Below, piece after piece: positions 1 through 22,478 of a DNA stretch of 64,000 bases. Numbering within the stretch: position 1 is the first letter of the stretch; each line of letters starts with the position of its first letter. Below the pieces are notes generated by a model. The model did no database searches and had not been told where the DNA came from. It saw only the letters and a list, made by a program, of their open reading frames with translations. The DNA lies in NCBI GenBank assembly GCA_965198325.1, contig CBDAPE010000015.1, forward strand, positions 335,158 to 399,157, given 5' to 3'. Source of the DNA: Alphaproteobacteria bacterium. GTDB lineage: Bacteria; Pseudomonadota; Alphaproteobacteria; UBA828; JAPUJA01. The position numbers were made by a program, and so were the translations under genes.

Positions 1-150
1 CTCGCCGTCGATGCCGACGCCGTTATCCGCGACGACGACCGAAGCGCCCCGGGAGGCCAGCGCGTGCGCGATCGCAAGGCCGATTCCCCGGCCAGCGCCC
101 GTGACGATTGCCACCCGGCCGGTAAGGCTCTGGTCGGTCCGATCTGTCAT
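1..150 (-). CDS. Short-chain dehydrogenase/reductase (SDR), N-terminal part. The gene runs off the left edge of the window.
   Basis: The reverse-complement of 1-150 reads MTDRTDQSLTGRVAIVTGAGRGIGLAIAHALASRGASVVVADNG. It contains the SDR TGxxxGIG Rossmann motif. The start overlaps the stop of the downstream gene by 4 bp. Confidence 0.7.
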   Translation of the reverse strand, partial: MTDRTDQSLTGRVAIVTGAGRGIGLAIAHALASRGASVVVADNGVGIDGE

Positions 151-1175
151 GCGGTCAACTCCAGGGCGGCCTTTTCCGCCGCCGTGTAAAACGCGTCCGC
201 ATGGCAATTCTCGCGCGCCACGCCCAGTTCGTAAAGCTGGACGAGACAGCTTTCCACCATCGGCGGGGGACCGGCGAGGTAGGCGCGTGCGCCCTCGCCG
301 GCGATGCGGTCTTCGCCAAGACCGTCCGCCAGCAGCCCGGTCCGCCGCTCCGTGGGCCCGACGGGCTCGGACAGCACGACCCGGTAGTCGAGATTTGCAT
401 GGGCCGACGCCAGGTCCTTGAAGTGATCCTCGAGATAAACGTCGCGCTCGTCGCGCACCCCGTGGTAGAGCCGGATCGGCGCTTTGAGCCCCGCGGCAAG
501 CGCCTCCTCGACAATCGCCTTGATGGGCGCAAGGCCCGAGCCCCCTGCGAGCGCGACCACGGGACCCGTGTGACGGGCCCGCCAGTAGGCGAAGCCGAAC
601 GGGCCTTCGGCGCGCACCGGATCGCCGAGGCTGAGGGTGTTGCGCACAAAGCCGCTGACCGCGCCGTTCTCGAGCGCCCGAACGTGGAAGTCGAGCGTCG
701 CCTCGTCGGGCCGGCTCGCCATGGAATAGTCGCGCACGGGCAGGCCGTCGAAGGTCAGTTCCGCATATTGCCCCGCGGTGAAGTGAAACGGCCCGCCCGC
801 GACCACGTCGAGGGTCACGCGCGTGATGTCGTGGGTCAGAGGGGTGAGCGCGGCGACCGTGCAGTCGAGCCGGCGGCGGGGATGAGCGACCAGCTCGTCG
901 TCTTCGAGGAACGCGATCTCGCAGTCGCTCCAGGGGACCGCACGGCAGGCCAGGATCAGGCCGGCGGCGGCTTGCTGCGCCGAGAGCGCGTGCTCCGAAT
1001 AGGGCGCCATCCGGACATCGCCCGAATGCAGGCGTGACTTACAGGCGCCGCAGTTGCCCGACTTGCAGCCGTGCGGATAGGGCCGCCCGAGGCCGAGCGC
1101 GGTTTCGAGGATCGTCGCGCCCATCTCGACAATGAACGGCTCGTTCCACTGCCGGACGGTTACCGTGTAGCTCAT
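147..1175 (-). CDS. Oxidoreductase with an N-terminal plant-type 2Fe-2S ferredoxin fused to an FNR-like FAD/NAD(P)-binding domain. Probable oxygenase reductase component.
   Basis: 342 aa. The N-terminus has CKSGNCGACK...C (Cx4Cx2C...C, 2Fe-2S). It is followed by an RDYSMAS (RxYS FAD-binding) motif and a GGSGLAP NAD-binding motif. Confidence 0.85.
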   Translation of the reverse strand: MSYTVTVRQWNEPFIVEMGATILETALGLGRPYPHGCKSGNCGACKSRLHSGDVRMAPYSEHALSAQQAAAGLILACRAVPWSDCEIAFLEDDELVAHPRRRLDCTVAALTPLTHDITRVTLDVVAGGPFHFTAGQYAELTFDGLPVRDYSMASRPDEATLDFHVRALENGAVSGFVRNTLSLGDPVRAEGPFGFAYWRARHTGPVVALAGGSGLAPIKAIVEEALAAGLKAPIRLYHGVRDERDVYLEDHFKDLASAHANLDYRVVLSEPVGPTERRTGLLADGLGEDRIAGEGARAYLAGPPPMVESCLVQLYELGVARENCHADAFYTAAEKAALELTA

Positions 1176-1308
1176 GCGTGGTCCGTCGTCGTTTCCAGGC
1201 AGGCATCTTGGGACCCGGGCGACCGGTTGGCAACGCGCAGACGCAGGCTATGAATTTTTCACCGGCTGGGCGAAGATTTACCGGTTCAAGATCAAGGGGG
1301 ACCGAATC

Positions 1309-1908
1309 ATGACCGACGAACGCGATCTCATAATCCCGCCTAAATCGGGGCGCGCCATCGTGGTGAAACGGGGCGAGACTCTCCGGGTGACCGACCTGGA
1401 AGGTCACCAGGTGGCCGACTTCGTGTGCTTCAACGAACACGACCATTCGGAATTTCTTTCCGCCGGGAAAACCCGGATGAACCCCTTCAAGGTCCGGATC
1501 TCGACTGGTGACAGACTCTATTCGAACCTGAGCACGGTCCTGTTTACGATCGGCAAGGACACGGTCGGCGTGCACGACCTGCTGTTCCCGCCGTGCAACC
1601 GCTGGCTCTACGAGAATGCGCTCGGCCAGCCGGGCGGCACCGGATGCCTCGAGAACCTGCGCGACGCGCTGGCGCCTTACGGGATCGAAGAATGGCAGGT
1701 GCCGGACCCGTTCAACCTGTTCATGAACACCCGCGTGGATGACGAAGACAATCTGGTCATCGAACTACCGAAATCCGGTCCGGGCGATTACATCGAACTC
1801 ACCGCCGAGATGGATTGTCTGGTCGGCGTGACCTCCTGCGCGGAGGAAAAGGCGAGCGACTGCAACGGCCGGCACGTGACCCCGATCGGGCTTGCGATCG
1901 TCCGCTGA
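1309..1908 (+). CDS. DUF1989-like (urea-carboxylase-associated family) protein
   Basis: 199 aa beginning MTDERDLIIPPKSGRAIVVKRGETLRVTDLEGHQVADFVCF. GGGGA lies about 8 nt upstream of the ATG. The longer ORF from 1174 has an Arg-rich leader and is probably not translated. The family call is from memory of the DUF1989 profile. Confidence 0.6.
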   Translation: MTDERDLIIPPKSGRAIVVKRGETLRVTDLEGHQVADFVCFNEHDHSEFLSAGKTRMNPFKVRISTGDRLYSNLSTVLFTIGKDTVGVHDLLFPPCNRWLYENALGQPGGTGCLENLRDALAPYGIEEWQVPDPFNLFMNTRVDDEDNLVIELPKSGPGDYIELTAEMDCLVGVTSCAEEKASDCNGRHVTPIGLAIVR

Positions 1909-2273
1909 TCCCGCGCGCGGCGCGCCGGCCAGGTGAAAGTCCAAGAATTGATGTCGTCATTGGATGATGGCTTGCCGAAGGGCATGGAGTAGTGGTCTCG
2001 GACGAGACTGGCTTCAAGGTCCACAGCGCCACCCTCTCGCGCGCGAGACCTTCACGAGACTTATGACGGCAGGATCGGGACAAGACGGAAGCAATATCAC
2101 GGCCCCATCGGGGGCATGATCGAAACGGGCTGTGCTCACGGTCGGGGGAAATTGGGGAGCGGGTCGATGGGCCAATCAATGCGACGTTCGAACCGGGCGC
2201 TACCCGATGAAGGCCGGTTTTGGTCTCGGCCGCGGGCTGTGCCAGCTTTTGGCGACAGGAGACGATTTATCGC

Positions 2274-2371
2274 GAAGAATTCAGCTAAGACGATTGTTCC
2301 AATGATTGCGGCCGTTATCGCCGCCTGAGGTTATTTTGGCGGACGAGGTTGGGGTAAATATAACGTGCGCC
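2274..2371. repeat. 98-bp repeat, copy A (~90% identical to 8309-8406). It carries a remnant of the Rieske-oxygenase start (GTG at 2365, reading MRHPKLTSRR then a stop).
   Basis: Direct alignment of 2274-2371 with 8309-8406 gives about 10 mismatches in 98 nt. Similarity ends exactly after gtgcgcc. Confidence 0.8.
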
Positions 2372-2450
2372 ATCCCAAGCTCACCTCCAGACGTTGACGC
2401 CCTCGCGCATCAGCCGTCCTACAACGGTACTGCGGCCGCCTGCGCAACAC

Positions 2451-2638
2451 CTTAGACGTAGTCCTTGGGGACAAGGGCTCGGCCGTCGAGCGCGAATGGT
2501 ACGATCACCTCATCGCGGCAGGGCTCGAGTCTTCCGGACATGGCACTCGCGAGGAGCCGCTTGCGTCCGGTCCTCTACCCAACAACCATGGTGGCGCAGC
2601 GAGTGTGATCGGAATCCTGGTCGGCAGGGCCGGACAGT
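2451..2638. repeat. 188-bp direct repeat, copy 1 (100% identical to 3002-3189)
   Basis: Identical 188-nt strings begin cttagacgtagtccttggggacaagg and end ggtcggcagggccggacagt. The next base differs (g vs a). Confidence 0.9.
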
Positions 2639-2639
2639 G

Positions 2640-2789
2640 CGAGAGAAGCTCATCAAGATCGGAGCGAAGATCGTGCGCCACGGGCGCTACGTCACGTTCC
2701 AGATGGCCGAGGTTGTCATTCCTCGTGACCTGTTCGCCGACATCCTGCGCCGTATCGACCGGCTCAGGCCGCCGCCAGCCCCGGCATGA
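2640..2789 (+). pseudogene. IS transposase C-terminal fragment (DDE transposase 3' end only). It starts directly at the end of the first 188-bp repeat.
   Basis: The translation REKLIKIGAKIVRHGRYVTFQMAEVVIPRDLFADILRRIDRLRPPPAPA then a stop is a characteristic transposase C-terminus. The preceding in-frame sequence is Arg-rich nonsense. No N-terminal or catalytic part is present. The IS family was not resolved. Confidence 0.6.
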
Positions 2790-3001
2790 GCGACGGCACC
2801 CCGTTCCTTCGCGTCGCCGCCGACAGGATCGGTGTGCCCGGATCGCCGGCAAAAATGCCATTCCGCGCCACCAACGCCGCCAATTGGTCCTCAATCATCC
2901 GGCTCGGCGCGAAGATGGCTGTCATTCGAAGGCAAATTGCACGTCGAGCGGTTTCGAGTCACACTCAACGGGCTGGGAGGGTTCCATATGGGGAATCCCG
3001 G

Positions 3002-3189
3002 CTTAGACGTAGTCCTTGGGGACAAGGGCTCGGCCGTCGAGCGCGAATGGTACGATCACCTCATCGCGGCAGGGCTCGAGTCTTCCGGACATGGCACTCG
3101 CGAGGAGCCGCTTGCGTCCGGTCCTCTACCCAACAACCATGGTGGCGCAGCGAGTGTGATCGGAATCCTGGTCGGCAGGGCCGGACAGT
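3002..3189. repeat. 188-bp direct repeat, copy 2
   Basis: See copy 1. Confidence 0.9.
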
Positions 3190-3500
3190 AGCTCAACTTA
3201 CAGTCGAAGCCGTCCAACGATTGGGGAGCAGCCCAATTCGGGGAGATAACAGTGAGAATTTCCGAACACATGGAACCCTACTTCCAGGGCTGAGTTACCA
3301 ACGATACCGCGGGCCACTTGAAGTCGGCCGCCAACAGAGTTTCTTTTTCGACGATCCCGACACCAGCAGAATTTCCAAGGCTGACTCCGAGGCGTATTTT
3401 GCCGCGCTCAATGTCGCGGTGGGCGAGAATCGCGCGGGCAAGACATTCAGCTATACTAACTGCCCCGAGGGCTCCCGTCGCAAAGCGAAAGGATCGCACC

Positions 3501-3872
3501 ATGACCGTGGCCGAACGCATCGAGGCCTATCTTCAGGCCTGGGTTACCGGCGATGTCTCAAGTCTGCTGGCGCAGTTTGCGGACAGTTTCTTATTCGACG
3601 ATCCCAATGTGGGCCGGATAACCCGACCTGGATTCAAAACCTACATGGAAGGTATCATGGCGAATGTCGAGCGTGTACGCGATGGCCGGAAATGCGAAAA
3701 TTTCGTGGAACTGAGCGAGATAGTCTCCAAGCACGAAGACGACGGCACAGCCACCCTCTGGTACTGGTGGGCCATCGCCGGCACGACGATCGAAGGATCC
3801 AGCCTCGTAAAGATCGGGCCCGAAGGCGTTCGCTCCGAGATCTACTGCTACTATGCCCGGACAGCGGAATGA
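3501..3872 (+). CDS. SnoaL-like/NTF2-fold small protein
   Basis: 123 aa beginning MTVAERIEAYLQAWVTGDVSSLLAQFADSFLFDDPNVG. The pattern is typical of SnoaL/NTF2-like proteins. AAAGGA lies 8 nt upstream of the ATG. Confidence 0.55.
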   Translation: MTVAERIEAYLQAWVTGDVSSLLAQFADSFLFDDPNVGRITRPGFKTYMEGIMANVERVRDGRKCENFVELSEIVSKHEDDGTATLWYWWAIAGTTIEGSSLVKIGPEGVRSEIYCYYARTAE

Positions 3873-4408
3873 CCGCGCGGCATTGTTCGGGGAAACAGAC
3901 ATCGTCAGGGTAAATTGGATGGAACCTCCTGACGAGTTTCATAACCTCCAGGGATGCAACACCGATTCCGCTATTTTGACATTTCGCTCGAAGTGACCCG
4001 CCTCGCGGAGATGATGTACGTCCACCACCCTAACCACTGCGATCTGTTCGAACAGAACCGCGCTGCCGCGCTCACGGAAAGGCGCCAACTCGCCGCGTGA
4101 GGGTCTTGATCGTTTCAAATCCCAAGGCTCAGCCCAATAATTTCTGTCCGCCCGTGGCCCGATCTATAACCTCTTCAACGCGCAACGCCATCTCGTTTTC
4201 CGCCACACGCTTCGAACCTTTTGCGATCACGCGATGGAGGAATGGAACGCTGTGACGGCGGCCGCGTGAATAGACCGGACTTCAAGTAAAAACCTGCCTC
4301 GCTTAAGTTAAGTTGACAGCTCCTATTTGACAACTCAGATACCTCAGCATTAAGGTCATAGAAAACGTTATAAATAATTTGCAGAGAGTGTCACAGGGAG
4401 ATTAAATC

Positions 4409-5476
4409 ATGACATCTGGCACATTTAAAATAGTCGCCGTGTCGGCCGCGCTGTTTGCTAGTACTGCGTTCAGTTACTTGGCCACTACGGCCACTACGGC
4501 ATTTGCAGGCGAGTTAAACCTACTCACGTGGGAAGGATACACTGACCAGAGCTTTATCGCCGCTTTCGAGGAGAGGACCGGATGTAAGATCACCGAGACC
4601 TTTATTGGGTCGCAGGAAGAGATCGCACCCAAGCTCTCGGGTGCCACGGGAGTCTACGACCTCGTCTCCCCCCAGATCGATTCGGCAAAAATCTTAGCTC
4701 AGATGGGTGTGGTTGAGCCTATTGACGTTCCGCGCCTCAAGCATTGGGGGGAATTCTACGGGTCGTTCATTGATCATCCCGGTCTCATCATCGACGGCGA
4801 GACGTGGGGTATGCCGTTTACCTGGGGTTCGGTCCCCCTGATGTATCGCACGGATAAGATCGACGATCCTCCGTCCTCGTTCTCGGTTCTCTGGGATCCG
4901 AGGTATGCCGGCAAGACCGCAGTGCAGGACGACAAGTCCAATATTTACATTGCTGCCCGTCTGCTCTTTGGGAGGGACTTTGACGCCTACAAGATGACCG
5001 ATGAGCAGCTTGAAACCGTGAAAGAAAAGTTAATCGAACAGAAAAAATACCTCCGCAAGTATTGGGCATCGGCGGGTGAACTTATAAATCTCTATGCGAA
5101 CGGTGAAGTCTGGATTTCTACCACTTGGGGCGGCTACCAAGTGGCTATACTCCAAGAACAGGGTATCCCAGTCGTTGAAGTCCTTCCCGAGGAGAGGGCC
5201 GAAGGATGGCAGGATGTCTGGATGATCGTAAAAGACACCGCCAATAGGGATTGTGCCTACGAGTGGCTCAACTTTGCGAGCGGATCCGAGGGCCAATGCG
5301 GAGTCGCAAGTGTCACGGGATATTGGGGAGCAAACCCGGTGGCGCTAGAGAGCTGCATGACGCCGGACATATTCCGTCCCTCCGAAGATTATACCGATAA
5401 CCTCTCGTTCCCAACTCAGCCGGAACCGCTTGAAGGCTATGTTAACACTTGGAATGCCGTAAAGACCGCCCCTTGA
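4409..5476 (+). CDS. Periplasmic substrate-binding protein, ABC family 1 (spermidine/putrescine PotD/PotF-like). It is an orphan: no permease or ATPase lies nearby.
   Basis: 355 aa with an N-terminal signal peptide (MTSGTFKIVAVSAALFASTAFSYLA...AFA). The codon usage is noticeably AT-richer than the flanks. An AT-rich promoter-like region with two TTGACA boxes lies at about 4310-4340. Confidence 0.7.
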   Translation: MTSGTFKIVAVSAALFASTAFSYLATTATTAFAGELNLLTWEGYTDQSFIAAFEERTGCKITETFIGSQEEIAPKLSGATGVYDLVSPQIDSAKILAQMGVVEPIDVPRLKHWGEFYGSFIDHPGLIIDGETWGMPFTWGSVPLMYRTDKIDDPPSSFSVLWDPRYAGKTAVQDDKSNIYIAARLLFGRDFDAYKMTDEQLETVKEKLIEQKKYLRKYWASAGELINLYANGEVWISTTWGGYQVAILQEQGIPVVEVLPEERAEGWQDVWMIVKDTANRDCAYEWLNFASGSEGQCGVASVTGYWGANPVALESCMTPDIFRPSEDYTDNLSFPTQPEPLEGYVNTWNAVKTAP

Positions 5477-5520
5477 TGGGCGATGACGGCGTCAAGTGAA
5501 CTAAACCACACTGGAGGAGT

Positions 5521-5547
5521 CCCGCCCCTTTGATGTCGAGGGGCGGG
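5521..5547 (+). terminator. Putative intrinsic terminator after the binding-protein gene
   Basis: cccgcccc-tttgatgtcga-ggggcggg forms an 8-bp GC stem, followed by atttcgtg. Confidence 0.45.
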
Positions 5548-5702
5548 ATTTCGTGCGAACTCCAAGCCGATCCTGGAAACGATCTCTTTGAGGCCGAAAT
5601 GGTTATCAAGAATAAGAGTGAATCCTGCATGCCTTGGCCAATTTTCTAATAGCCTTGAAGTCACTTCGAGAATGCACAACCAGAGACCCGTGAGAGGAAC
5701 AC

Positions 5703-8297
5703 GTGCCGTCGATTTATAAGATACAGCCCGAAGATCGGATTTACGCTGAAGAATTTCGTCGAAATCCGATTGGCCACCACAGCCCTGGGTTAAATCGCAT
5801 TCTCACCTTGTTTAGAGGTGAACCGGTCGAGAAGAAAGATGTTCTCGTATGCGTACAACCCCACCGAGAGTGGTGGCTGGGACAGTTGTCCGGGCACCGA
5901 GGAAGGCCAATCAGGATTATTCGAGATAAGTGTTTTAGAAATCTCTGGGACGCGGAGTGGGAGATTTTCAAAAGGCGGTGGAAAAAGCATACGGGCGAAG
6001 ACCTTGAAGGCCAGGATAAGCAGCGCGAAGCCCCCCACTCCTATCGGGACGACGGCATCAGGATTACAGGTTATAGCGACCGCATCGGTGTGAGGCCGGG
6101 CGAAACCATCCACTTCAAGGTCTCATGCGACCGCGTCAAGAGCTACCGCTCCGACATTGTCCGTCTCGTCTGCGGCGACACTGATCCTAATGGGCCGGGC
6201 TTCAAGGAGAAGCTCGTGAAGACTGGTGTGAGCGGGCGCTACAAAGGTCGAAAACAGGCGATTCGCGTGGGATCCCACACGATCGTGCCCACTGCATCCG
6301 CACTCGAAGCGCTGGAGAGCTTTTCCCTGCAAGCGATGATTTGGCCGACTACTCCCAGGAAAAGTATTCAAGGGATCATTTCAAAGTGGTCCGCAGGGTC
6401 AAAAAGTGGATTTGCACTAATCATCGACGAGAAGGGCGAGGCCGCCCTAATGGTCGGGGACGGAGCCGGCCGAGTGCACATCGTCAGCACGGGACGACGC
6501 CTGCTCGATCGGCAATGGTATTTCGTGGGGGCAAGTTTTGATGCCCGGGCGCAGCGAGTCCGTGTATTTCAGGAGCCGCTTGTGCAGTTTCCGGGACATG
6601 ATGACCCTGCTGTAAAAAGCCAAACGCTCGAGCTAGCTCGGGTCGGAGCAAATGACTGTCCGTTAATCATGGCCGGAATACAGCAGCGATCTTCGAAGGC
6701 TCGGATAATCGTGGGAAACCACTATAACGGCAAGATTGACAGCCCACGTCTTGCCAACCGAGCCCTTTCACCAGCGGAGGTGGAGACCCTTAAGCATGGC
6801 GTTCCCGCCGCTCTCGAAGATGCGGTCGTTGCCGCTTGGGACTTCTCGCGCGACATTGGCTCCGAGCGCATTGCAGACCTTTCGCCCAACCAGCTCCAGG
6901 GCACGATGGTCAACCTGCCCACGCGCGCGGTAACGGGCTGGAATTGGACGGGGCAGCATATGCGCTGGAGCGAGGCCCCCGAGCAATGGGGCGCGATTCA
7001 CTTTCATGACGACGATCTTTACGACGCGGGCTGGGAGACGGATTTTGAGTGGAAAGTGCCCGGGCGTATGAAGAGCGGTCTCTACGCTACGCGCCTTCGC
7101 TCCGGACGATCCGAGGAATACGTTCCTTTTGCCGTCGGGCCGAGGCCAGGGCACGAGTCGAAGGTAGCACTCCTTCTGCCAACCGCCAGTTACATGGCCT
7201 ACGCCAACGAGCACTCAGGAACGGACTCGGACACGATTGAACGGATGAACGGCGTTGTTTGCGTCCTGTACCCGCAAGACCTGTTTCTAAACAAGCATCG
7301 GGAATACGGTGCCTCGCTCTACGACACGCACACAGACGGGAGTGGTGTCGTCTACTCTTCGCGCCTGCGTCCGATCCTGAACATGCGGCCCAAATACGAA
7401 TCCAACATGGGCGGAGCGAAAGTCCACCAGTTCAACGCGGATACCCACATCATCGACTGGCTCGAGGCGAACGACATCGAATACGACGTCATTACGGACG
7501 AGGAGCTCGACCGACGTGGCATGGCGTTGCTGTCCCCTTACCGGGTTGTGCTCACCGGGACCCATCCGGAGTACTGGTCGCCTAAGATGCAGGACGGGAT
7601 GGTCGCCTACGAGCGCCGCGGGGGACGACTGATGTATCTGGGCGGCAACGGGTTCTACTGGAAGATCGCCTTTCACCCGGAATTGCCCGGCGTGATCGAA
7701 GTCCGCCGCAACGAGACCGGCATGCGCGCCTGGCCGTCGGCGCCCGGTGACTACTACCACGCCTTCGACGGCGAATACGGTGGCCTCTGGCTGAACCAGG
7801 GCGGCGGGAGAACACAACAGTCTATGGTCGGAACCGCCTTTTGCGCCCAGGGGTTCGATCTTTCCTCCTACTACCGGCGCAAGCCGGACAGTCTTGACCA
7901 GAAGGTGAAATTCATTTTCGAGGGGATCGAAGACGACGAGTTGATCGGCGATTTCGGGTTGCTTGGAGGGGGCGCGGCCGGCTGGGAGATCGACTGTATT
8001 TCCTATGATCAAGGGACGCCGTCAAACACATTCGTTTTGGCGAGTTCTGAGGACCATACGGACGTTTATCAGCTTACTGCCGAAGAGATGCTCGAAGGTT
8101 ACGCGGGCACCGGAGGACAAGAAAATCCTCGCGTTCGTTCAGATATGGTGTTTTTCGAGACTGCAGATGGCGGAGCCGTGTTCTCAGTCAGCTCGATTGC
8201 CTGGGCGGCGAGCTTGTCGCACAACAATTATAAGAACAATGTTTCGCGGATAACGAAAAACGTTTTGACTCGCTTCCTCGATCCAAGAGTCTTCTAA
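5703..8297 (+). CDS. Large (864 aa) protein resembling the N,N-dimethylformamidase large (beta) subunit family (GATase1-like C-terminal domain)
   Basis: GTG start with GAGAGGA 5 nt upstream. The C-terminal half has LLLPTASYMAYANE, RVVLTGTHPEYWSPKMQDGMVAYERRGGRLMYLGGNGFYWK and AFDGEYGGLWLNQGGG. I recall these as characteristic of DMFase large-subunit/GATase1-like proteins. No small-subunit gene is adjacent. The family call is from memory. Confidence 0.45.
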   Translation: MPSIYKIQPEDRIYAEEFRRNPIGHHSPGLNRILTLFRGEPVEKKDVLVCVQPHREWWLGQLSGHRGRPIRIIRDKCFRNLWDAEWEIFKRRWKKHTGEDLEGQDKQREAPHSYRDDGIRITGYSDRIGVRPGETIHFKVSCDRVKSYRSDIVRLVCGDTDPNGPGFKEKLVKTGVSGRYKGRKQAIRVGSHTIVPTASALEALESFSLQAMIWPTTPRKSIQGIISKWSAGSKSGFALIIDEKGEAALMVGDGAGRVHIVSTGRRLLDRQWYFVGASFDARAQRVRVFQEPLVQFPGHDDPAVKSQTLELARVGANDCPLIMAGIQQRSSKARIIVGNHYNGKIDSPRLANRALSPAEVETLKHGVPAALEDAVVAAWDFSRDIGSERIADLSPNQLQGTMVNLPTRAVTGWNWTGQHMRWSEAPEQWGAIHFHDDDLYDAGWETDFEWKVPGRMKSGLYATRLRSGRSEEYVPFAVGPRPGHESKVALLLPTASYMAYANEHSGTDSDTIERMNGVVCVLYPQDLFLNKHREYGASLYDTHTDGSGVVYSSRLRPILNMRPKYESNMGGAKVHQFNADTHIIDWLEANDIEYDVITDEELDRRGMALLSPYRVVLTGTHPEYWSPKMQDGMVAYERRGGRLMYLGGNGFYWKIAFHPELPGVIEVRRNETGMRAWPSAPGDYYHAFDGEYGGLWLNQGGGRTQQSMVGTAFCAQGFDLSSYYRRKPDSLDQKVKFIFEGIEDDELIGDFGLLGGGAAGWEIDCISYDQGTPSNTFVLASSEDHTDVYQLTAEEMLEGYAGTGGQENPRVRSDMVFFETADGGAVFSVSSIAWAASLSHNNYKNNVSRITKNVLTRFLDPRVF

Positions 8298-8308
8298 CTG
8301 TTTATTGG

Positions 8309-8406
8309 GAAGAACTCAGCTAAGATGATTGTTCCCATGATTGCAGCCACTATCGCCACCTGAGGTTATTTTGGCGGACGAGGTTGAGGTAAATTTAACG
8401 TGCGCC
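8309..8406. repeat. 98-bp repeat, copy B. It contains the leader and the GTG start (8400) of the intact Rieske oxygenase gene.
   Basis: See copy A. Confidence 0.8.
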
Positions 8407-9572
8407 TGGAAGATTTTATCGATCGCGAACGCTTGGCCGACCTTGACCGGCCGATAGGCGAAACGGCCGGTCTCCCGGGAAGCGCGTACAGCGAGGGATT
8501 TTACAAACTCGAACAAAGGGAATTTTTTCCCCGCACATGGTGTGCCATCGCCGTCGGATCGCAAGTTCCCAGACCGGGAGATGTGATACCCATCGACCTC
8601 GCGGGCTGGCCGCTCCTCCTTGTTCGCAATCAGTCGGGTCAAATCAAGGTTTTCCACAACATGTGTCAACACCGGGGCATGCGCGTCGTGACGAAGTCCG
8701 CATGTCGCCAGGAGCTTCGGTGCCCGTGGCATGCCTGGACCTACGATCTGGATGGCCGTCTCAAAACGCGGCGCGATTTCGCAGGTTGGAACGCGCCGGA
8801 TGCCGGAGACATGAATGCGGAGCTACCCGGACTTAAAGAAGTGCGGTCGGATCAGTGGCACGACTACGTAATGGTCAATATCGACGGCAAGGCGCCGCCG
8901 CTTCGAGATCATATCAAGCCTCTCGATGACTTCCTCCAGGACTACGATCTTGATGCTTTCGAGTACGCGAACACGCTGGAGCATTCTTACGAAGGCAACT
9001 GGAAGCTGGCGATGGAGGGTGGGCTCGAGGAATACCATCTACGTTCGGCGCATCCCCGCTTTGCCAAGGGCGTCATTTCGCAAAATCTTGAGTTCAGCCT
9101 CGATGCGGCCTGCCATTCGGGTTACCTGTTCTCTCGGAACTTTGGAGAAACCGAAAGGGCGGATCGAGTGGGCGAGCGCGGCATGCCGGCTCGTCCTGGT
9201 ACCCCACGCGACGTTGAGAACTATTACCTGATCAACCTATTTCCTGTGGGCCTGATGCTCCTTGAGGACGATCACGCAATCTTCATCTTGTTTACCCCCG
9301 ATGGTTGGAACCGCACGCGCGTCGTCAACTACCACTATTATTTTGGTGCCGCGGCTGTTGATCCGGCTTATGCCGAGGTCCGCAAGGAGTTTGAAGACGT
9401 TTGGACAGAGGTGATGTACCAGGACGCGGATTTCGTGAAATACGTCCATGAGAATGCGCAGCTGCGTGATGCGGTCGGCATCAATTCGCACTTCGCGCCT
9501 TATTGGGAAAGGCCGGTCCAGCATTTTCAACGACTCGTCATAGATACGATGAAAAATAGCTCGGACGGATGA
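8400..9572 (+). CDS. Rieske [2Fe-2S] non-haem iron oxygenase alpha subunit (GbcA/Stc2/CntA-like N-demethylating monooxygenase family)
   Basis: 390 aa. The Rieske motif is CQHRG...x17...CPWHAW (CxH...CxxH). A downstream catalytic domain is present. GAGG lies upstream of the GTG. Confidence 0.85.
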   Translation: MRLEDFIDRERLADLDRPIGETAGLPGSAYSEGFYKLEQREFFPRTWCAIAVGSQVPRPGDVIPIDLAGWPLLLVRNQSGQIKVFHNMCQHRGMRVVTKSACRQELRCPWHAWTYDLDGRLKTRRDFAGWNAPDAGDMNAELPGLKEVRSDQWHDYVMVNIDGKAPPLRDHIKPLDDFLQDYDLDAFEYANTLEHSYEGNWKLAMEGGLEEYHLRSAHPRFAKGVISQNLEFSLDAACHSGYLFSRNFGETERADRVGERGMPARPGTPRDVENYYLINLFPVGLMLLEDDHAIFILFTPDGWNRTRVVNYHYYFGAAAVDPAYAEVRKEFEDVWTEVMYQDADFVKYVHENAQLRDAVGINSHFAPYWERPVQHFQRLVIDTMKNSSDG

Positions 9573-9896
9573 GGGCGGGCGGCCAAGCTGGTTGAAGCCG
9601 GCTGAATTGGGATTGCCGGGCGAGTCAATTCCCAGCGCTCGCGGACGCCCGATCTGAATCTGATTCCAAGTCTTTAAAATATTTGCTTTGGGCCAGAAGC
9701 GGCCCCCGCTGGCGGAGAATTCGAACGGCCTGCAATGTGTCCGCGGACGGACTCTCGGATGGTGGCTCCAGACCCTAAATGAGAACGGCGGCGCAATAAT
9801 CCCCCCCTGAAGCGGCCGGTTGATCCGGCTGTGGCGGACCAAAATGGGACCGTCTATAGCCTTCTGTCAGGGTTGCTCTGACTGGAAGGCGGGGGG

Positions 9897-10253
9897 ATGT
9901 ATCGGGTGGATTTGTACGCGCGGGTTCGGCGGGCGTGTCGTGTCGAGGGAATGAGCACCCGCGAGGCCTCGCGGGTGTTCGGGCTGGACCGCAAGACGGT
10001 CCGCAAGATGCTGTCGTTCTCGGTGCCGCCGGGGTCTCGCCGCGGCAAGCCGCCACGGCGGCCGAAGCGGGGTCCGTTCACGGGGATCATCGATCGGATT
10101 CTGGAAGACGATCGGACCAGCCACCACAAGCAACGGCCCACGGCGAAGCGGATCTTCGACCGTCTCCGGGACGAGTACGGCTTTACGGGCGGCTACACCA
10201 TCGTGAAGGACTATGTCCGTGAGCGGCGGCTTCGGTCGCGCGAGATGTTCGTC
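9897..10253 (+). pseudogene. istA: IS21-family istA, 5' fragment
   Basis: The translation is MYRVDLYARVRRACRVEGMSTREASRVFGLDRKTVRKMLS...GYTIVKDYVRERRLRSREMFV. This is the HTH N-terminus of IstA. It is cut off after REMFV. Confidence 0.75.
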
Positions 10254-11432
10254 GCTGTCCAGATATCTTGTGTAAATGAGTGCCGTGGGTCCACCTACGA
10301 TGAGGACTATCAGACCTGAACTTCGACGAACTTCTGGCCGATTACGAGAAGCCGGATGACCTGCTGGGCGAAGACGGGCTTCGGTGCTCGAGCGGGCGCT
10401 TGGCGATGAGCGATCACCGGCTACGAGAAGGGTGACCCGGCGGTCGCGGCACGTAACAGCGGCTACTCGGACAAGACGGTGCTGAGCGAGGATGGCGAGA
10501 TCGATATCGCCGTGCCGCGCGACCGCACCGGCACGTTCGACCCGCTGATCGTGCCCAAGGGCGAACGCCGTCTCGAGGGCTTCGACGATCGCATCGTGTC
10601 GCTGTATGCCCGCGGCATGACGGTGCGCGAGATACGTGGCCATCTGCAGGAGCTTTACGGGGTCGCGGTTTCGCCGGACCTGATCAGCCGGGTCACCGAC
10701 GCGGTACTCGAGGAGGTCCGCGAATGGCAGAACCGACCGCTCGATGCGGTCTATCCGGTGGTGTTCTTTGACGCGCTGCGGGTCAAGATCCGCGACGAAG
10801 GCCTGGTGCGCAACAAAGCAGTCTACGTTGCACTGGCCCTCACCGCTGAAGGCGAGAAGGAGGTTCTCGGGCTGTGGATCGAGCAGACCGAAGGCGCCAA
10901 GTTCTGGCTCAAGGTGATGAACGACCTCAAGACCCGCGGCGTCGCTGACATCCTGATCGCCGTGGTCGACGGCCTCAAGGGCTTCCCCGAGGCGATAACA
11001 ACGGTGTTCCCCGAGACCACGGTGCAGACCTGCATCGTGCATCTGATCCGCAGTTCGCTGGCGTTCGTGTCGTGGAAGGACCGAAAGAGGATCATGCCCG
11101 ATATCAAGGCGATCTACCGCGCCGAAACCGCCGAGACCGCGGCGGCCAAGCTCGACGAGTTCGAGGCCAAATGGGGCGAGCGCTATCCGGCGATCGCGCC
11201 CAGCTGGCGCCGCGCCTCGCCGATGTTCGCGCGCCGGGATCCGCGATCTACACCACCAATGGAGCCTGCACCGGCGCAAGATCAAGACACGCGGTAGCAA
11301 CGACCGCGGTCAAGCGGTTCCTGGCGATCCGCAATGCCTTGGAAACGGCCTATTGAATGGACCGCCGCAATGGGGCGCGATCTGTTCGAGGATCCTTTCC
11401 GGCCTCAGCGCGCTCGAAACAATGTCGCCCCG
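10254..11432 (+). pseudogene. IS256-family transposase, degenerate (multiple frameshifts), inserted in istA
   Basis: Frame C reads FDELLADYEKPDDLLGEDGL, then there is a frame break. The central part is TGTFDPLIVPKGERR...DDRIVSLYARGMTVREIRGHLQELYGV...VYVALALTAEGEKEVLGLWIEQTEGAKFWLKVMNDLKTRGV...VVDGLKGFPEAITTVFPETTVQTCIVHLIR. The tail IYTTN...MPWKRPIEWTAAMGRDLFEDPFRP is in other frames. Confidence 0.8.
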
Positions 11433-11636
11433 CCACTTACACAGACAATCGGACACACCCATTCCCCCGGCCCCGCCCAGGCGGACTTCGGCGAGGCGAT
11501 GGCGGTGATCGGCTCCGAGCGGCTTACCGGCGCTCTCCTCGACCGCCGCACCCACCACGTCAACATCCTCGAGATGAATGGCGAGAGCTACAGGCTCAAC
11601 CAGAGCCGCAGGCGTCAAACCCCGACGGCGAACTGA
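11433..11636 (+). pseudogene. IS21 remnant: an istA fragment fused in frame to the istB C-terminus (internal deletion)
   Basis: PLTQTIGHTHSPGPAQADFGEAMAVIG (IstA segment that normally follows REMFV) runs directly into SERLTGALLDRRTHHVNILEMNGESYRLNQSRRRQ (IstB C-terminus). Confidence 0.65.
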
Positions 11637-11829
11637 ACCGACCACCCAACCCACGCTTGACCCCATGGGCCCACAGGTCCCTCCCGCGCGCGCCGCCGCG
11701 TCGGCCTGTTGAGGGCACGCCGCGTCGCACGCGGGGCCCGCCCATGGACTACGGGGACAAGCCCGCAGCCGCCAAGCGGTCCCTTCTTACACCGCCACGG
11801 TCGTCCCTTTTTGCTCCGCCATTGACACC

Positions 11830-13791
11830 CTAAAGCACTGCGGCGACCTTGAGCGCGTCGAGGGTCGCCTCTTCGACGGTCCGGGGCGTGGCGCAATCGC
11901 CGATCGCGATCACCTCGCCGTCATAATCGGATAACTCTTCGAGGAGCCCGGCATAGCGCTCGTGACCGAGCGCCAGAACGATGGTTTCGATGTCTTCGAC
12001 GACAATTGCCTCGCCGGTCATGATGTGCTGCAGATAGACCGAGTCGTCGTCGACCCCGAACAGCCGCGCATACGGGATCACCTCGACGCCGAGGCGATGC
12101 ATGGTTCCCGCCCCCATGTCTCGGATATAGGGCTGAAGCGATTGCCCGGCGGCGTAGCCGGCCACGGCGAGGCGCACCCGGCAGCCGTCGCGGGCGAGCT
12201 TCTCGGCCAAGCCGAGCCCGATCCAGTCGCAGCGCCAGTCGGCGACCAGCACCGAGGCCCCGACGTTGACCTCGTTCTTCAGCACCTGCCAGGCATCGAC
12301 CACATGCTCGCCCTCGAGACCATCGAGCGCGGGCCGGCGTGGGCCGGCACCGGTCGCGACGATCACCGCGTCGGGCGCTTCGCGGGCGATCAACTCGGGC
12401 GTGGCTGGCGTGTTCTTGACGACCGCGGCCCCGGCCAACTCCATCTCGCGGCTGAAATTGGTCACGATGCCGCCGAACTCCGCGCGGCCGGGGAGCGCCT
12501 GTGCAAGCAGGACCTGACCGCCAAGCTGGCCGCTCGCTTCGTAAAGCGTGACGGCGTGACCCCGCTCGGCGGCAACGATCGCGGCCTTCATGCCCGCGGG
12601 GCCACCACCGGCGACCAACACCTTGCGCACGGGGTCGGCTGGTTTGAGCGAGCCGTATTCGAGTTCGCGGCCGGTCTCGGGGTACTGGATACAGGAGATC
12701 GAATAACCGGTCATCATATGGCCTATGCAGGCCTGGTTGCAGGCGATGCAGGCACGAATATCGTCGACGCGCCCCGCTCGGGCCTTGTTGACCATCTCGG
12801 GATCGGAAATCTGGGCGCGGGTCATGCCGCACATGTCGGCCTGACCCGAGGCCAGAATGGTCTCGGCGATGTGGGGCTGGTTGATCCGCCCGGCGACGAA
12901 GACCGGCCGGGAAACCCGTTCGCGCACGGCGGCCGCGTAGGGCGCGACATAGCCCGTCTCCATGGCCATCGGCGGAACGATATGGGTCGCCGCGCCGAGA
13001 TTGACTGACGAGCCGGCGATGACATTGAAATAGTCGATCCCACCATCGCCGTCGAGCGCGACGCAGGCAGCCGCGGCTTCGTCGAGGCTCAGCATCTCCG
13101 CGTCGGTGCCGTCGCCGGTGATGCGCAGGCCGACGATCAATCCATCGTCGGTCTTGGACCGGACGTCAGTCACGACCTCGCGCAGAAACCGCAGGCGGTT
13201 ATCAACCGAGCCCCCATATTCGTCTTCGCGCAAGTTCACCCGCGGGCTCAGGAACTGGGCCGGCAGATAACCATGGCTGCCGACGATCTCGACACCGTCG
13301 AGACCCGCCTCGCGCATGCGCGCCGCGGCGTGGCCATAACCCGCCACAATTTCGCCGATCAGGTCGCGCGACATGGGCTCGGGTACGATGTGGAAGCGCT
13401 CGTTCGGCACCGCGGAGGGGGCATAGGCATGAGCCTGGGAGCCATCGGTCGAGCTGAAGATTTCGCGCCCCGGATGGAAGATCTGACCGAATATCCTGCA
13501 GCCGTGGGAATGAACCGTTTCGGCCAGCTCGGCGTAGCCCGGGATGCAGCTGTCGTCGTAGGCGATGATGGAATTGAGGTTGAATACGCCGGTCGGATGC
13601 ACCGCGCCGATCTCGACGATAATCAGACCGGCCCCACCCTTCGCGCGCGCCTCGTGATACGCCCTGAGCGCATCGTTGGGAGCGGTGCCTTCGACGAGCA
13701 GGGTTTCATGCCCCGTCGAAAAAATGCGGTTCCGGATCTCGAGTCCCCGGATGGTAAGCGGACTGAACAGGGTCGGAAACATTTGGCTCAT
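11830..13791 (-). CDS. Old-yellow-enzyme-family FMN/Fe-S flavoprotein fused to an FAD/NAD(P)-binding domain (dimethylglycine/N-methylproline demethylase StcD/DgcA-like, TMADH/2,4-dienoyl-CoA reductase family)
   Basis: 653 aa from MSQMFPTLFSPLTIRGLEIRNRIF (GAGGAAGAG RBS). An OYE TIM-barrel N-domain is followed by a 4Fe-4S motif CIACNQACIGH...C. The C-terminal Rossmann motif is KVLVAGGGPAGMKAAIVAAERGHAVTLYE. Confidence 0.85.
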   Translation of the reverse strand: MSQMFPTLFSPLTIRGLEIRNRIFSTGHETLLVEGTAPNDALRAYHEARAKGGAGLIIVEIGAVHPTGVFNLNSIIAYDDSCIPGYAELAETVHSHGCRIFGQIFHPGREIFSSTDGSQAHAYAPSAVPNERFHIVPEPMSRDLIGEIVAGYGHAAARMREAGLDGVEIVGSHGYLPAQFLSPRVNLREDEYGGSVDNRLRFLREVVTDVRSKTDDGLIVGLRITGDGTDAEMLSLDEAAAACVALDGDGGIDYFNVIAGSSVNLGAATHIVPPMAMETGYVAPYAAAVRERVSRPVFVAGRINQPHIAETILASGQADMCGMTRAQISDPEMVNKARAGRVDDIRACIACNQACIGHMMTGYSISCIQYPETGRELEYGSLKPADPVRKVLVAGGGPAGMKAAIVAAERGHAVTLYEASGQLGGQVLLAQALPGRAEFGGIVTNFSREMELAGAAVVKNTPATPELIAREAPDAVIVATGAGPRRPALDGLEGEHVVDAWQVLKNEVNVGASVLVADWRCDWIGLGLAEKLARDGCRVRLAVAGYAAGQSLQPYIRDMGAGTMHRLGVEVIPYARLFGVDDDSVYLQHIMTGEAIVVEDIETIVLALGHERYAGLLEELSDYDGEVIAIGDCATPRTVEEATLDALKVAAVL

Positions 13792-13975
13792 GGCGTCTCT
13801 TCCTCGGCTGCGCCCTAACCAACCCCGAATTGCCGTGCCAATCAAGGGCACAGCGCATCGGGCGGGCTCACGGCCTTGTGAGGGCAGTTGATTTGTCTGG
13901 CGTGGTCAAGCGGCCTATCTCTGTCGGCGTGTGACGGCGATCAACGCGGCGCCCGCGATTTAGATGCAAAAGACC

Positions 13976-14260
13976 ATGGCAAGAGCAATTTGGAACGGTA
14001 CCGTTATCGCAGAAAGCGAATCCGCAAAAATCGTGGACGGGACCCTTTACTTTCCGCCCGAGGCTCTCCATCTCGAGTACTTCCGGGCCAGTGGAACCGA
14101 GACGGTCTGCCCCTAGAAGGGCACGGCGTCCTATTTCACCCTTGAGGTGGAGGGCGTTTGCAACGAGGATGCGGCCTGGGCCTATATTGATCCCAATCCC
14201 CAGGCCGATGCGATCCGCGGCCATGTCGCGTTTCAGAAAGACGTTAACGTTGTTTCTTAA
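13976..14260 (+). pseudogene. DUF427 family protein with an in-frame TAG at a conserved Trp position
   Basis: MARAIWNGTVIAESESAKIVDGTLYFPPEALHLEYFRASGTETVCP-TAG-KGTASYFTLEVEGVCNEDAAWAYIDPNPQADAIRGHVAFQKDVNVVS. The DUF427 consensus has CPWKG here. The TAG at 14114-14116 replaces TGG. Confidence 0.6.
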
Positions 14261-14324
14261 CCGGGCATTGGCAATTCTCGCCCTAAACTGGGCACCATTG
14301 GCAGGTAGCCCGAGGACGACCACG

Positions 14325-14759
14325 ATGGTCCGCAGATTCCTTCTCACCACCGCCCTGGCGGTATTCATTCCTGGCCTCGCGCCGGCGTTGACCAGCGCCC
14401 CGATCGCCGTCGAGATCGTCGGCGTGCGCAGCGCGTCCAGCGTCATCGAACTCGCCGTCTACGACAGCGCCGAGAGCTTCCTCGAAGACGGCCAAAGCGT
14501 CGCCACGGCGACCTTCGACGCGAGCGACGGCCGGGTGGCCGGCGAGGTCCTCGGACTTCCCGCGGGCCGCTACGCCATCGCGGTCTTCCACGACGAGAAC
14601 GGCAACGACGAGTTCGATACGAACTTCATCGGCCTGCCCACCGAGGGCTACGGCTTCTCGAACGGCGCGACCGTATTCCTGGGCCCGCCCGCGTTCGACG
14701 ACGCTGCCTTCGAGACCGGCGCCGAAGGCGCCCGACTGACCGTAAACCTGTCCTACTAG
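14325..14759 (+). CDS. DUF2141-like secreted protein
   Basis: The signal peptide is MVRRFLLTTALAVFIPGLAPALTSAP. The mature part is IAVEIVGVRSASSVIELAVYDS...AGRYAIAVFHDENGNDEFDTNFIGLPTEGYGFSN, which is typical of DUF2141. Confidence 0.6.
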   Translation: MVRRFLLTTALAVFIPGLAPALTSAPIAVEIVGVRSASSVIELAVYDSAESFLEDGQSVATATFDASDGRVAGEVLGLPAGRYAIAVFHDENGNDEFDTNFIGLPTEGYGFSNGATVFLGPPAFDDAAFETGAEGARLTVNLSY

Positions 14760-14796
14760 GTAGATCCGACCGTCTGAACGGCGGACGCCGACCGCT

Positions 14797-22367: not shown

Positions 22368-22478
22368 TGATGGTCTCCCCATTCCTGAGTCGAACGCCGA
22401 ACGTGCCCCATCCGCAGGGTGCCCGACCATTCAAGGCAGATTATATCAGCCATGGGGGAGCGTCACCCGGTGCGTCGA

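Follow-up and report, generated by a model that had tools for sequence, protein, structure and literature searches.

Results

A cargo region bracketed by two diverged repeats

The window analyzed here is a stretch of 64,000 nt. Toward its left end, convergent backbone genes for a DUF1989 protein (stop codon at 1906–1908) and an OYE/FadH-type flavoprotein (stop codon at 11830–11832) flank a run of genes and gene relics that includes two direct repeats. The repeats (copy A, 2266–2371; copy B, 8301–8406) align without gaps over 106 nt and are identical at 95 of 106 positions (89.6%), the remaining 11 being differences. Within them, a 98-nt core (2274–2371 and 8309–8406) is 90.8% identical (blastn within the window, E = 1e-29), and the longest identical run, of 28 nt, has these two occurrences and no others in the window, where chance predicts none. 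No IS termini or inverted-repeat termini were found abutting the repeats at 2372 or 8300.

Copy B, on the plus strand, begins 3 nt past the stop codon (8295–8297) of a dimethylformamidase-like (DMFase-like) gene and fills the gap up to the GTG start codon (8400) of a live oxygenase gene. It provides a ~100-nt leader with a Shine-Dalgarno motif (GAGG) and the first 7 nt of the open reading frame (ORF). No terminator-like site was found between the DMFase-like gene and the oxygenase gene. The oxygenase (8400–9572, plus strand; 390 aa) is an alpha-only Rieske protein of the GbcA/CntA/Stc2-like group, with Pfam Rieske and Ring_hydroxyl_A domains. Assignment as GbcA was rejected, since the NCBIfam equivalog NF058607 scored 122.7 bits against a 670-bit cutoff and matched the N-terminal half alone. 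PDB matches to CntA, Stc2 and a demethylase were at about 1e-22; outside the 90% cluster of the protein, the closest homologue is 57% identical, and among sequenced species representatives the best is 37% identical. At the DNA level, window 8303–9557 matches positions 9904–11158 of locus L015 at 92.8%. This homology begins ~100 nt upstream of the GTG and stops 15 nt short of the oxygenase stop codon, the last 15 nt being junction-derived; the live oxygenase is evidently a trimmed fragment of an L015-type module. The gene neighborhood in L015 is different and has no DMFase-like gene.

Copy A is the right-hand part of a longer relic of the oxygenase 5ʹ region, module A (2124–2371, plus strand), which is 81% identical to L015 9761–10006, the sequence directly upstream of the L015 oxygenase, P0121. 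The left-hand 142 bp (2124–2265) are native upstream sequence missing from copy B; no homology was found left of 2124. Copy A has its GTG at 2365 and is severed 7 nt into the ORF, leaving a stub (2365–2397) that reads MRHPKLTSRR-stop. In place of the oxygenase body, after codon 3, there is an unstranded 79-bp spacer (2372–2450) with no coding-frame signal and no match in plasmids, any fetched locus or the rest of the window, and neither an IS terminus nor any known sequence was found at the 2371/2372 junction. No other oxygenase fragment was found in the window.

To the right of the spacer, two unstranded 188-nt repeats that are 100% identical (2451–2638 and 3002–3189) enclose a 363-bp IS1380-family 3ʹ tail (2639–3001, plus strand). 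The tail consists of a transposase C-terminus to 2789 (Pfam DDE_Tnp_1_4, positions 387–434 of 435) and then the IS end (…CCCGG at 3001), with blastn matches to IS1380-family transposase genes of Microvirga and L016. An ISEcp1/IS1380-type one-ended transposition unit was considered and rejected: the tail has the right orientation but is all that is left of the element, sibling contigs lack it, and no flanking 5-bp duplication was identified.

The genes between the repeats all share the orientation of the oxygenase. A SnoaL-like pseudogene fragment (3253–3445, plus strand), which preserves ~65 N-terminal codons interrupted by an in-frame TGA and a frameshift, precedes a SnoaL-like gene (3501–3872, plus strand; 123 aa; Pfam SnoaL_2, E = 2.8e-5, below the gathering score), with which its frameshift-corrected translation is 33% identical (E = 2e-11). 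IS6-family transposase relics follow (3940–4271, plus strand; blastn matches to a Microvirga IS6-family transposase and the L015 IS6 gene), and then a gene for a PotD/YdcS-like periplasmic solute-binding protein (SBP; 4409–5476, plus strand; 355 aa), which matches Pfam SBP_bac_8 and scores below cutoff for NCBIfam YdcS/PotD. The last gene before copy B (5703–8297, plus strand; 864 aa) encodes a DMFase-like amidohydrolase that is a single-chain alpha+beta fusion (PF26354, DMF_alpha; PF20254, DMFA2_C, E = 1.2e-97). Its match to the large subunit of PDB 6lvb (E = 2.5e-169) is nearly equaled by that to an N-acetyl-(R)-beta-Phe acylase (E = 4e-161), and there is no NCBIfam equivalog match. The iron-ligand Glu is kept, the Glu in THPEYW aligning with the one replaced in mutant entry 6lve; this residue and the overall sequence place the protein in the DMFA2 family.

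The SBP and DMFase-like genes have 69% and 74% DNA identity, respectively, to an adjoining pair in L016. There, the pair lies between ~2.9-kb inverted IS blocks that are 99.3–100% identical, so that two copies of the same IS bracket the cargo, and no oxygenase is present. A Rieske gene is also absent in two further contexts of fused DMFase-like homologues. By these comparisons, the SBP and DMFase-like genes are evidently a separate mobile module, carried in L016 as composite-transposon cargo.

To the right of the oxygenase lies an IS21-family relic (9865–11827, plus strand) with ends TGTCAGGG… and …CATTGACA, the termini being read from the sequence. It holds an istA N-terminus (9897–10319) and an istB C-terminus (~11480–11636), both identified by blastn to L016 istA/istB, and a decayed IS256-family element is nested in it at ~10255–11460 (transposase fragment 10479–11297; Pfam Transposase_mut). 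The right end of the IS21 relic is 2 nt from the OYE stop codon.

Base composition

Cargo genes have a G+C content of 53.7–57.3%, compared with 64.5% for 14–64 kb. The third-position G+C content (GC3) of the four cargo genes is 0.62–0.69 (0.685 for the SnoaL-like gene), compared with 0.79–0.85 for flanking backbone genes and a background of 0.789 ± 0.041 (16–64 kb). The low-GC tract extends from ~3190 to 9860. It takes in the oxygenase gene to the right of copy B, which is of cargo type (56.3% G+C, GC3 0.642), and leaves out the IS debris at 2372–3189 (63–65% G+C).

A first-pass annotation made from the sequence alone had described much of this correctly: ~98-bp direct repeats of ~90% identity, copy B as the leader and GTG start of the intact oxygenase, copy A as a stub of the same start, and, between them, perfect 188-bp repeats, an IS transposase fragment, and SnoaL-like, PotD-like and DMFase-like genes. 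Its reading of copy A gains from the additional 142 bp of leftward homology to the region upstream of the 93%-identical L015 oxygenase. Its proposal that foreign, mobile DNA separates the two copies agrees with the deviant GC3, the IS1380 and IS6 relics, and the recurrence of the SBP/DMFase-like module as composite-transposon cargo in L016. The lower G+C content it reported for the insert is real, but the limits of the low-GC tract are not those of the repeats.

The insert is 9.9 kb long and includes the oxygenase

In a syntenic but distant relative (L017/L018; ~75% DNA identity), the genes for the reductase (window 147–1175), the DUF1989 protein and the OYE-type protein are contiguous, the latter two overlapping by 4 nt, and the oxygenase is absent. 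L017 8690–10593 is collinear with window 2–1901, and L017 10610–12559 with window 11843–13792; the two blocks are separated by 16 nt in L017 and the same site in the window holds 9,921 bp. The whole of 1909–11829 (~9.9 kb; unstranded), spanning both repeat copies and the oxygenase gene, is therefore the insert. Its limits follow from the L017 collinearity, the L017/L018 gene order and the alignment of the junctions. Besides being missing at the syntenic site of a relative, the insert has the two other hallmarks of a genomic island, a composition unlike the host backbone (four cargo genes by GC3) and remnants of mobility genes at borders and seams (IS1380, IS6, IS21 and IS256). The island is chromosomal: collinearity with L017 continues to window 22287, through the DnaJ/Gln-synthetase region, and there are tRNA genes in the window.

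The reductase, of the BenC/AntC/MmoC type, comes last in a conserved backbone operon on the minus strand (PaaA/C-like, SDR, reductase), overlaps the SDR gene by 4 nt, and is not a neighbor of this oxygenase in L015 or L017.

Discussion

Our analysis identifies 1909–11829 as an ordinary mosaic genomic island and not as an insertion into a native oxygenase gene. How did two copies of an oxygenase leader come to bracket the cargo? We think it probable, though well short of certain, that the island was assembled by IS elements between two convergent chromosomal genes, and that copy A is the relic of a second, diverged oxygenase module. It would combine three or more modules of independent history: an L015-type Rieske oxygenase module, present as two diverged pieces; the mobile two-gene unit of a PotD-like SBP and a fused alpha/beta DMFase-like amidohydrolase; and the SnoaL-like gene, with its decayed paralogue ahead of it. 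Several of the seams have IS1380, IS6, IS21 or IS256 relics on or close to them. The 106-bp bracket would be what both pieces still share of the oxygenase 5ʹ region. Piece A (2124–2371), which retains ~240 bp of native upstream sequence, would have been cut 7 nt into the ORF by a rearrangement and is now a dead stub. Piece B (8301–9557), which retains no more than the ~100-nt leader with its ribosome-binding site, would have been placed 3 nt downstream of the DMFase-like stop codon and deprived of the last 15 nt of its ORF at the other junction. Having no distal upstream region, it is probably co-transcribed with the SBP and DMFase-like genes as a newly built operon. The cargo may allow some N-substituted amide or amine to be taken up and degraded.

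We infer that A and B derive from two copies of the module that were already ~10% diverged, whether paralogous or separately acquired, and that A was truncated afterwards. The second full copy is inferred and not seen, because no contig with an A-type leader joined to an intact oxygenase was found. The identity between A and B (89.6%) exceeds that of either copy with L015 (82–85%), which fits a within-lineage duplication equally well, including one by recombination inside the leader. Such recombination, at an earlier stage of island assembly, is a possible but rather unlikely source of the bracket. Incoming DNA, circular or linear, with the SnoaL-like, SBP and DMFase-like genes and ending in a ~106-bp leader relic, would have integrated into an oxygenase module acquired beforehand. 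The crossover, Campbell-type or homology-facilitated and illegitimate, would have fallen in the ~90%-identical leader and duplicated it on both sides of the incoming DNA; this is the mechanism of the first-pass annotation shifted inside the island. It accommodates direct repeats that bracket exactly the non-oxygenase cargo, the common orientation of that cargo with the oxygenase, and the character of A, with native distal upstream sequence, and B, which runs into the ORF, as halves of one resident module. Consistent with this, A and B group as sisters with L015 outside them, and divergence from L015 is alike for the A flank (~20%), the leaders (15–18%) and the fourfold sites of the ORF (16%). 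The 28-nt identical run is about the minimum for RecA-dependent exchange. However, the leader relic, trimmed at both ends, would have to pre-exist on the incoming DNA, which makes the scheme no more economical than two module copies. Furthermore, exchange between 90%-identical segments of 106 bp is inefficient, and such an element was not seen in free form. With L015 as the third sequence, 12 changes are unique to L015, 7 to A and 4 to B, those of A being interspersed among those of B with no switch point, although with 11 sites this test has little power.

In the mechanism of the first-pass annotation, a ~6-kb foreign segment entered a native oxygenase start, duplicated ~100 bp of target and split the oxygenase and its partner reductase apart. 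The repeat and the stub ORF do exist, the interval does contain IS debris and lower-GC genes, and a BenC/AntC/MmoC-type reductase is able to serve Rieske oxygenases. Nonetheless, we regard this mechanism as highly improbable, and in our judgement the L017/L018 gene order and collinearity refute it as written: the relative has no oxygenase at this site. The oxygenase has a cargo-type GC3, and it is truncated at its 3ʹ end too. The adjacency of reductase and oxygenase expected in related genomes was not seen in L017/L018, and the reductase is coupled instead to the SDR gene of its own operon. A bracket made by recent insertion is also contradicted by sequence divergence: A and B are 10% diverged, against no difference between the 188-nt repeats and ~0.1% or less between sibling contigs and the window, so they are not a newly made target duplication.

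A regulatory role for the repeat, as a promoter, operator or 5ʹ UTR kept twice so that one regulator controls the SnoaL-like, SBP and DMFase-like genes from A and the oxygenase gene from B, seems doubtful to us. Both copies face genes on the same strand, unique changes are fewer in copy B than in copy A, and L015 shares the conserved upstream region, in which a 24-mer (2204–2227) is identical. However, the 24-mer lies outside the duplicated part, copy A is separated from the first intact gene by a 10-codon stub and ~1.1 kb of debris from IS elements and a pseudogene, the unit has only two copies in the window, and the island contains no regulator gene. No σ70-like promoter was found in the 106-nt unit. 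A riboswitch or structured leader RNA was likewise rejected: the unit has no Rfam match at gathering score, and its fold stability does not differ significantly from shuffles (z-scores +1.1 for A, -1.0 for B and -1.7 for L015). The duplicated junction is not an assembly artefact, even though the source is metagenomic and the nearby 551-bp unit of 188-nt repeat, IS1380 tail and repeat varies between assemblies. Both copies, with the same 11 differences, are found in independent ENA assemblies from two other samples (L001 and L002/L004). Their spacing there is the same apart from the 551-bp unit, the 188-nt repeat being single-copy and the tail missing, and Logan contig L003 covers copy B. Hence, there is next to no chance that a chimeric or mis-joined contig produced the bracket.

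What known systems does the island resemble? Transposon target-site duplications are also direct repeats flanking mobile DNA, but they are identical and 2–15 bp long; those described here are 106 bp long and 89.6% identical, far longer than any such duplication, and have no element termini at 2372 or 8300. We therefore rejected transposon insertion with target-site duplication. Campbell-type and homology-facilitated illegitimate recombination do duplicate a homologous segment directly on both sides of the integrated DNA, but here the homology is short and 90% identical, the divergence pattern reveals no crossover point, and no circular or donor form was seen. The oxygenase has the domain architecture of alpha-only Rieske N-demethylases and monooxygenases (GbcA, CntA, Stc2, Ndm-type), which give its best NCBIfam and PDB matches, but it has no dedicated reductase gene in the island and falls far below the GbcA cutoff.

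Horizontally acquired, often plasmid-borne DMFase genes have been described in Paracoccus and Rhizobiales (bioRxiv 10.1101/2021.03.18.435917); the enzyme encoded in the window differs in being a single-chain alpha+beta fusion, DMFase-like by sequence. The L016 locus, with its 77%-identical DMFase-like and SBP pair bounded by inverted IS blocks, resembles a classical composite transposon. The island itself was rejected as one, because no IS sequence has a second copy in the window, where the only long repeats are the 188-nt pair, the 106-nt pair and one unrelated paralogue pair. Unlike known IS-assembled catabolic mosaic islands and composite transposons, the island is chromosomal and has neither an intact IS nor a bracketing pair of intact IS copies. 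It nonetheless shares with them a foreign composition, several IS families at the seams, truncated gene relics, and the same cargo in different genomic contexts.

An island between two convergent backbone genes

The first-pass annotation had proposed comparison with related genomes, and two ENA contigs, L017 and L018, show the locus without the insert. In both, minus-strand genes for a cupin, a PaaA/C-like protein, an SDR and a reductase are followed on the plus strand by the DUF1989 gene, whose product is 81% identical to that of the left flank of the island. Next come a convergent gene for an OYE/FadH-type flavoprotein, which overlaps the DUF1989 gene by 4 nt, and genes for DUF2141, radical-SAM and Memo/AMMECR1 proteins. 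By blastn, L017 8690-10593 corresponds to window positions 2-1901, L017 10610-12559 corresponds to 11843-13792, and collinearity extends to window position 22287. Hence, the 9,921 extra bases at 1909-11829, between the stop codons of the DUF1989 and OYE genes, are additional DNA of the window. Both copies of the duplicated oxygenase leader (copy A, 2266-2371; copy B, 8301-8406) and the Rieske oxygenase gene itself (8400-9572) sit within this insert. Insertion in the window is favoured over deletion in L017 by the composition of the cargo and by the IS relics, among which an IS21-family end (…CATTGACA) lies at 11827, 2 nt from the OYE stop codon. Further arguments are that the flanking genes overlap by 4 nt in L017 and that the cargo modules are found elsewhere in unrelated settings.

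These comparisons change the interpretation of the locus. Insertion of foreign DNA into a native oxygenase gene, as first suggested, is not borne out, since the oxygenase is itself part of the insert. Nor was the oxygenase split from a partner reductase at 147-1175: this BenC/MmoC-type reductase gene overlaps the SDR gene by 4 nt and belongs to a backbone operon conserved in L017. The reductase is not an ancestral neighbour of the oxygenase, and proximity is no ground for a partnership here; it could act as an electron donor in trans.

The cargo genes, all on the plus strand, encode a SnoaL-like protein (3501-3872), a solute-binding protein (SBP; 4409-5476), a DMFase-like protein (5703-8297) and the oxygenase. 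They have a GC content of 53.7–57.3%, against 64.5% for 14-64 kb, and their GC3 values (0.685, 0.624, 0.669 and 0.642, respectively) compare with 0.79–0.85 for the six flanking backbone genes and a mean of 0.789 ± 0.041 for other long ORFs of the window. The oxygenase therefore groups with the cargo by composition. The first description of a low-GC insert between the repeats was right in that the cargo is lower in GC than the backbone, but the limits of the tract do not match the repeats, because the oxygenase, which follows copy B on the right, has 56.3% GC and the IS debris immediately to the right of copy A has 63–65%.

IS relics are found at or near the seams and to the right of the oxygenase. 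An IS1380 tail (2639-3001) and IS6 relics (~3940-4271) lie at or near seams, and an IS21-family relic with the ends TGTCAGGG… and …CATTGACA occupies 9865-11827, to the right of the oxygenase. Nested in the latter is a decayed, frameshifted IS256-family element (~10255-11460) that replaces most of istA and istB. No target duplication matching the ends of the IS21 relic was found, and none of these IS sequences recurs elsewhere in the window. Megablast of 1200-9700 gave no plasmid match, and distant blastn of 1909-4408 against plasmids returned IS6 and IS1380 fragments only. Four stretches (1909-2123, 2372-2450, 9558-9864 and a 188-nt repeat unit) resemble none of the fetched loci at the nucleotide or translated level and show no GC3 signal of a coding frame; of these, 2372-2450 takes the place of the oxygenase ORF after copy A. 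The two copies of the 188-nt unit, R1 (2451-2638) and R2 (3002-3189), are 100% identical, as first described, so that 2451-3189 consists of R1, the 363-bp IS1380 tail and R2. The ENA contigs L001 and L002/L004, otherwise ~99.9% identical to the window, have one repeat and no IS1380 tail, a difference of 551 bp. The single-repeat state is easy to explain by loss through recombination between R1 and R2; the difference could also be one of assembly.

Two further features lie outside the island. Tandem diverged repeats at 22461-24000 (300 nt at 83% and 237 nt at 79%, with a spacing of 879 bp) are probably two adjacent paralogous genes. A 97-nt tRNA-Cys called by ARAGORN at 44792-44888 is doubtful; an Rfam gathering-score scan gives only the tRNA at 31165-31238.

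A duplicated gene start and a trimmed oxygenase

The duplicated junction and its coordinates stand. A gapless alignment of copies A and B spans 106 nt, of which 95 are identical (89.6%); the 98-nt core originally named is 90.8% identical (E = 1e-29 in a search within the window), and a 28-nt core occurs exactly twice in the window, with 0 occurrences expected. Copy B takes up the DNA from just after the DMFase-like stop codon (8295-8297) to the GTG of the oxygenase (8400) and includes 7 nt of the ORF. The sequence also confirms the stub in copy A, where the shared GTG (2365) opens a reading frame of 10 codons. We rejected an assembly artefact as the source of the pair, since both copies are present in the independent ENA assemblies L001 and L002/L004.

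The exact oxygenase protein is recorded in this population only. The second member of its 90% cluster, P0121, is encoded on a 100-kb ENA contig, L015, and the nearest homologue beyond that cluster is 57% identical. In species-representative genomes the best relative of the oxygenase is 37% identical, and hence no orthologous locus was found in cultured or reference species. In L015 a second Rieske gene, a RidA gene and a 99-aa ORF lie upstream of the oxygenase on the opposite strand, genes for RidA, GST and an OpuAC-type transporter lie downstream, and the neighbourhood contains no DMFase-like gene. By blastn, L015 9904-11158 matches window 8303-9557 (92.8%) and L015 9761-10006 matches window 2124-2370 (81%). 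The three-way alignment shows that the native upstream region of the oxygenase family is represented by copy A together with 142 bp on its left. Further left, beyond 2124, the local alignment score does not exceed that of shuffles. Copy B retains only the proximal ~100 nt, including the Shine-Dalgarno GAGG 10 nt before the GTG, and lacks the distal region. A 24-mer in that distal region, CCGATGAAGGCCGGTTTTGGTCTC (2204-2227), is identical at L015 ~9841-9864 amid ~20%-diverged surroundings and is absent from copy B; it may act as an operator or promoter element.

At the other end, homology to L015 stops at 9557, 15 nt short of the oxygenase stop codon. The last 5 residues (9558-9572) stand for the 20 C-terminal residues of P0121 (L015 11159-11218), and the C-terminus was therefore rebuilt by a junction. 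With only ~100 nt of leader and this truncated 3ʹ homology, the live oxygenase is a fragment trimmed at both ends. By tblastn there are no further oxygenase or cargo relics within the window. An A-type leader joined to an intact oxygenase ORF was not found among plasmids, fetched loci or JGI metagenome scans, and neither a 22-mer of the leader nor the 24-mer of the native upstream region had a match in JGI metagenomes. On another contig, L012 (6512-12053), two genes for 341-aa IS256-type transposases flank an MFS transporter gene and the gene for P0023, a homologue of the oxygenase with 45% identity; this oxygenase clade is repeatedly IS-associated in these ENA sample series.

What is the origin of the duplication? 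Compared with the A/B identity, A/L015 and B/L015 identities are lower (82.1% and 84.9%), and unique changes over the 106 nt number 12 in L015, 7 in A and 4 in B. These values make A and B sister lineages, with a split roughly two-thirds as deep as that from L015; the window and L015 oxygenase ORFs differ by 16% at fourfold-degenerate sites. The A/B split thus long predates the identical 188-nt repeats and the differences between the window and L002 (≤0.1%). This age excludes target duplication during a recent insertion. We prefer a route in which two module copies, already diverged, either paralogous or separately imported, would have been present first; one would then have been cut at codon 3, and capture would have brought the other to its place behind the DMFase-like gene. 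The other route is an exchange inside the leader, of a homeologous Campbell type or facilitated by homology; the longest identical A/B run is 28 nt, and a crossover-point test with L015 as third sequence found A-unique and B-unique changes interleaved. The sequence data fit either route.

Separately mobile modules

In the DMFase-like protein, alpha and beta subunits are fused into a single chain of 864 aa (alpha, small subunit, PF26354; beta, large subunit, PF20254). Fused forms (864–882 aa) are a minority among its best 120 homologues, most of which are beta-only proteins of ~745–750 aa. A 77%-identical homologue, P0125, is encoded on contig L016 next to a 355-aa SBP gene. There (6616-17091), the fused DMFase-like gene and the SBP gene form a ~4.4-kb cargo with no oxygenase, bordered by ~2.9-kb inverted IS blocks that are 99.3–100% identical (IS256-type, rve_3 and IS3-type genes), a composite-transposon arrangement. 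Two more neighbourhoods, of 55%-identical fused homologues, have no Rieske gene and have SnoaL_2 genes nearby; these genes are 2–3 genes away on L021/L022 and a JGI contig. In the window, a decayed SnoaL paralogue fragment (3253-3445) lies directly upstream of the intact gene (E = 2e-11 after correction of one stop and one frameshift), with an in-frame TGA in place of a Trp codon of the paralogue.

Together, these observations identify the locus as a mosaic island of the usual kind, assembled by IS elements and carrying the relic of a gene start at one of its seams; the finding is real but ordinary. The first-pass annotation was correct in coordinates, description and gene calls (the IS1380-type transposase tail, SnoaL-like, SBP, DMFase-like and Rieske oxygenase genes), and largely wrong in mechanism as to what is host and what is cargo. 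The main value of our analysis is this correction: the repeat pair does not mark insertion into a native gene but is a scar within a larger island built by IS elements. The island is also a clean, datable case of a pathway put together from modules that move separately, since other metagenomic contigs (L015, L016 and L017) show each of the parent arrangements.

Expression and possible function

Copy B begins 3 nt after the DMFase-like stop codon, on the same strand. Given this spacing, the lack of a terminator-like site between the two genes in a crude scan and the loss of the distal upstream region, we infer that the oxygenase would be read through from the SBP/DMFase-like transcription unit. 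A crude scan also found no σ70 promoter consensus in the leader. A structured RNA or riboswitch in the leader was rejected (no Rfam match and no significant fold), and a leader peptide in copy B, MIVPMIAATIAT, was set aside, as copy A has ACG in place of its ATG. Copy A, with ~1.1 kb of IS and pseudogene debris ahead of it, is most likely inert.

What might the cargo do? The DMFase-like protein matches the large subunit of Paracoccus DMFase (E = 2.5e-169) with the Glu ligand retained, and matches N-acetyl-(R)-beta-phenylalanine acylase in the PDB nearly as well. Among characterised proteins, the oxygenase is closest to N-demethylases and monooxygenases of the alpha-only type (CntA, Stc2, a demethylase and GbcA), with all of these matches far short of equivalog level. 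From these similarities, it is plausible that the cargo serves to take up and degrade an N-substituted amide or amine. A little-known Rieske oxygenase now lies behind a fused DMFase-like enzyme, and the pairing is open to biochemical test; our literature search found no paper naming both DMFase and Rieske, and none citing the sample accessions.

DMFase genes are often horizontally acquired (bioRxiv 10.1101/2021.03.18.435917). A further reading, which as a whole we consider quite improbable, takes the seam at 8298-8301 as a possible record of a recent operon birth, in which an alpha-only Rieske gene of the N-demethylase type, cut from an L015-type locus, would have come to lie behind a mobile SBP and single-chain DMFase-like module. 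In that reading, the oxygenase may carry out one step of a novel route of amide catabolism. Alternatively, if both enzymes act on one N-alkyl amide family (for example DMF, NMF or DMAc), it would be a candidate for the missing N-demethylase of the oxidative DMF pathway, since that enzyme is noted as still unidentified (bioRxiv 10.1101/2021.03.18.435917).
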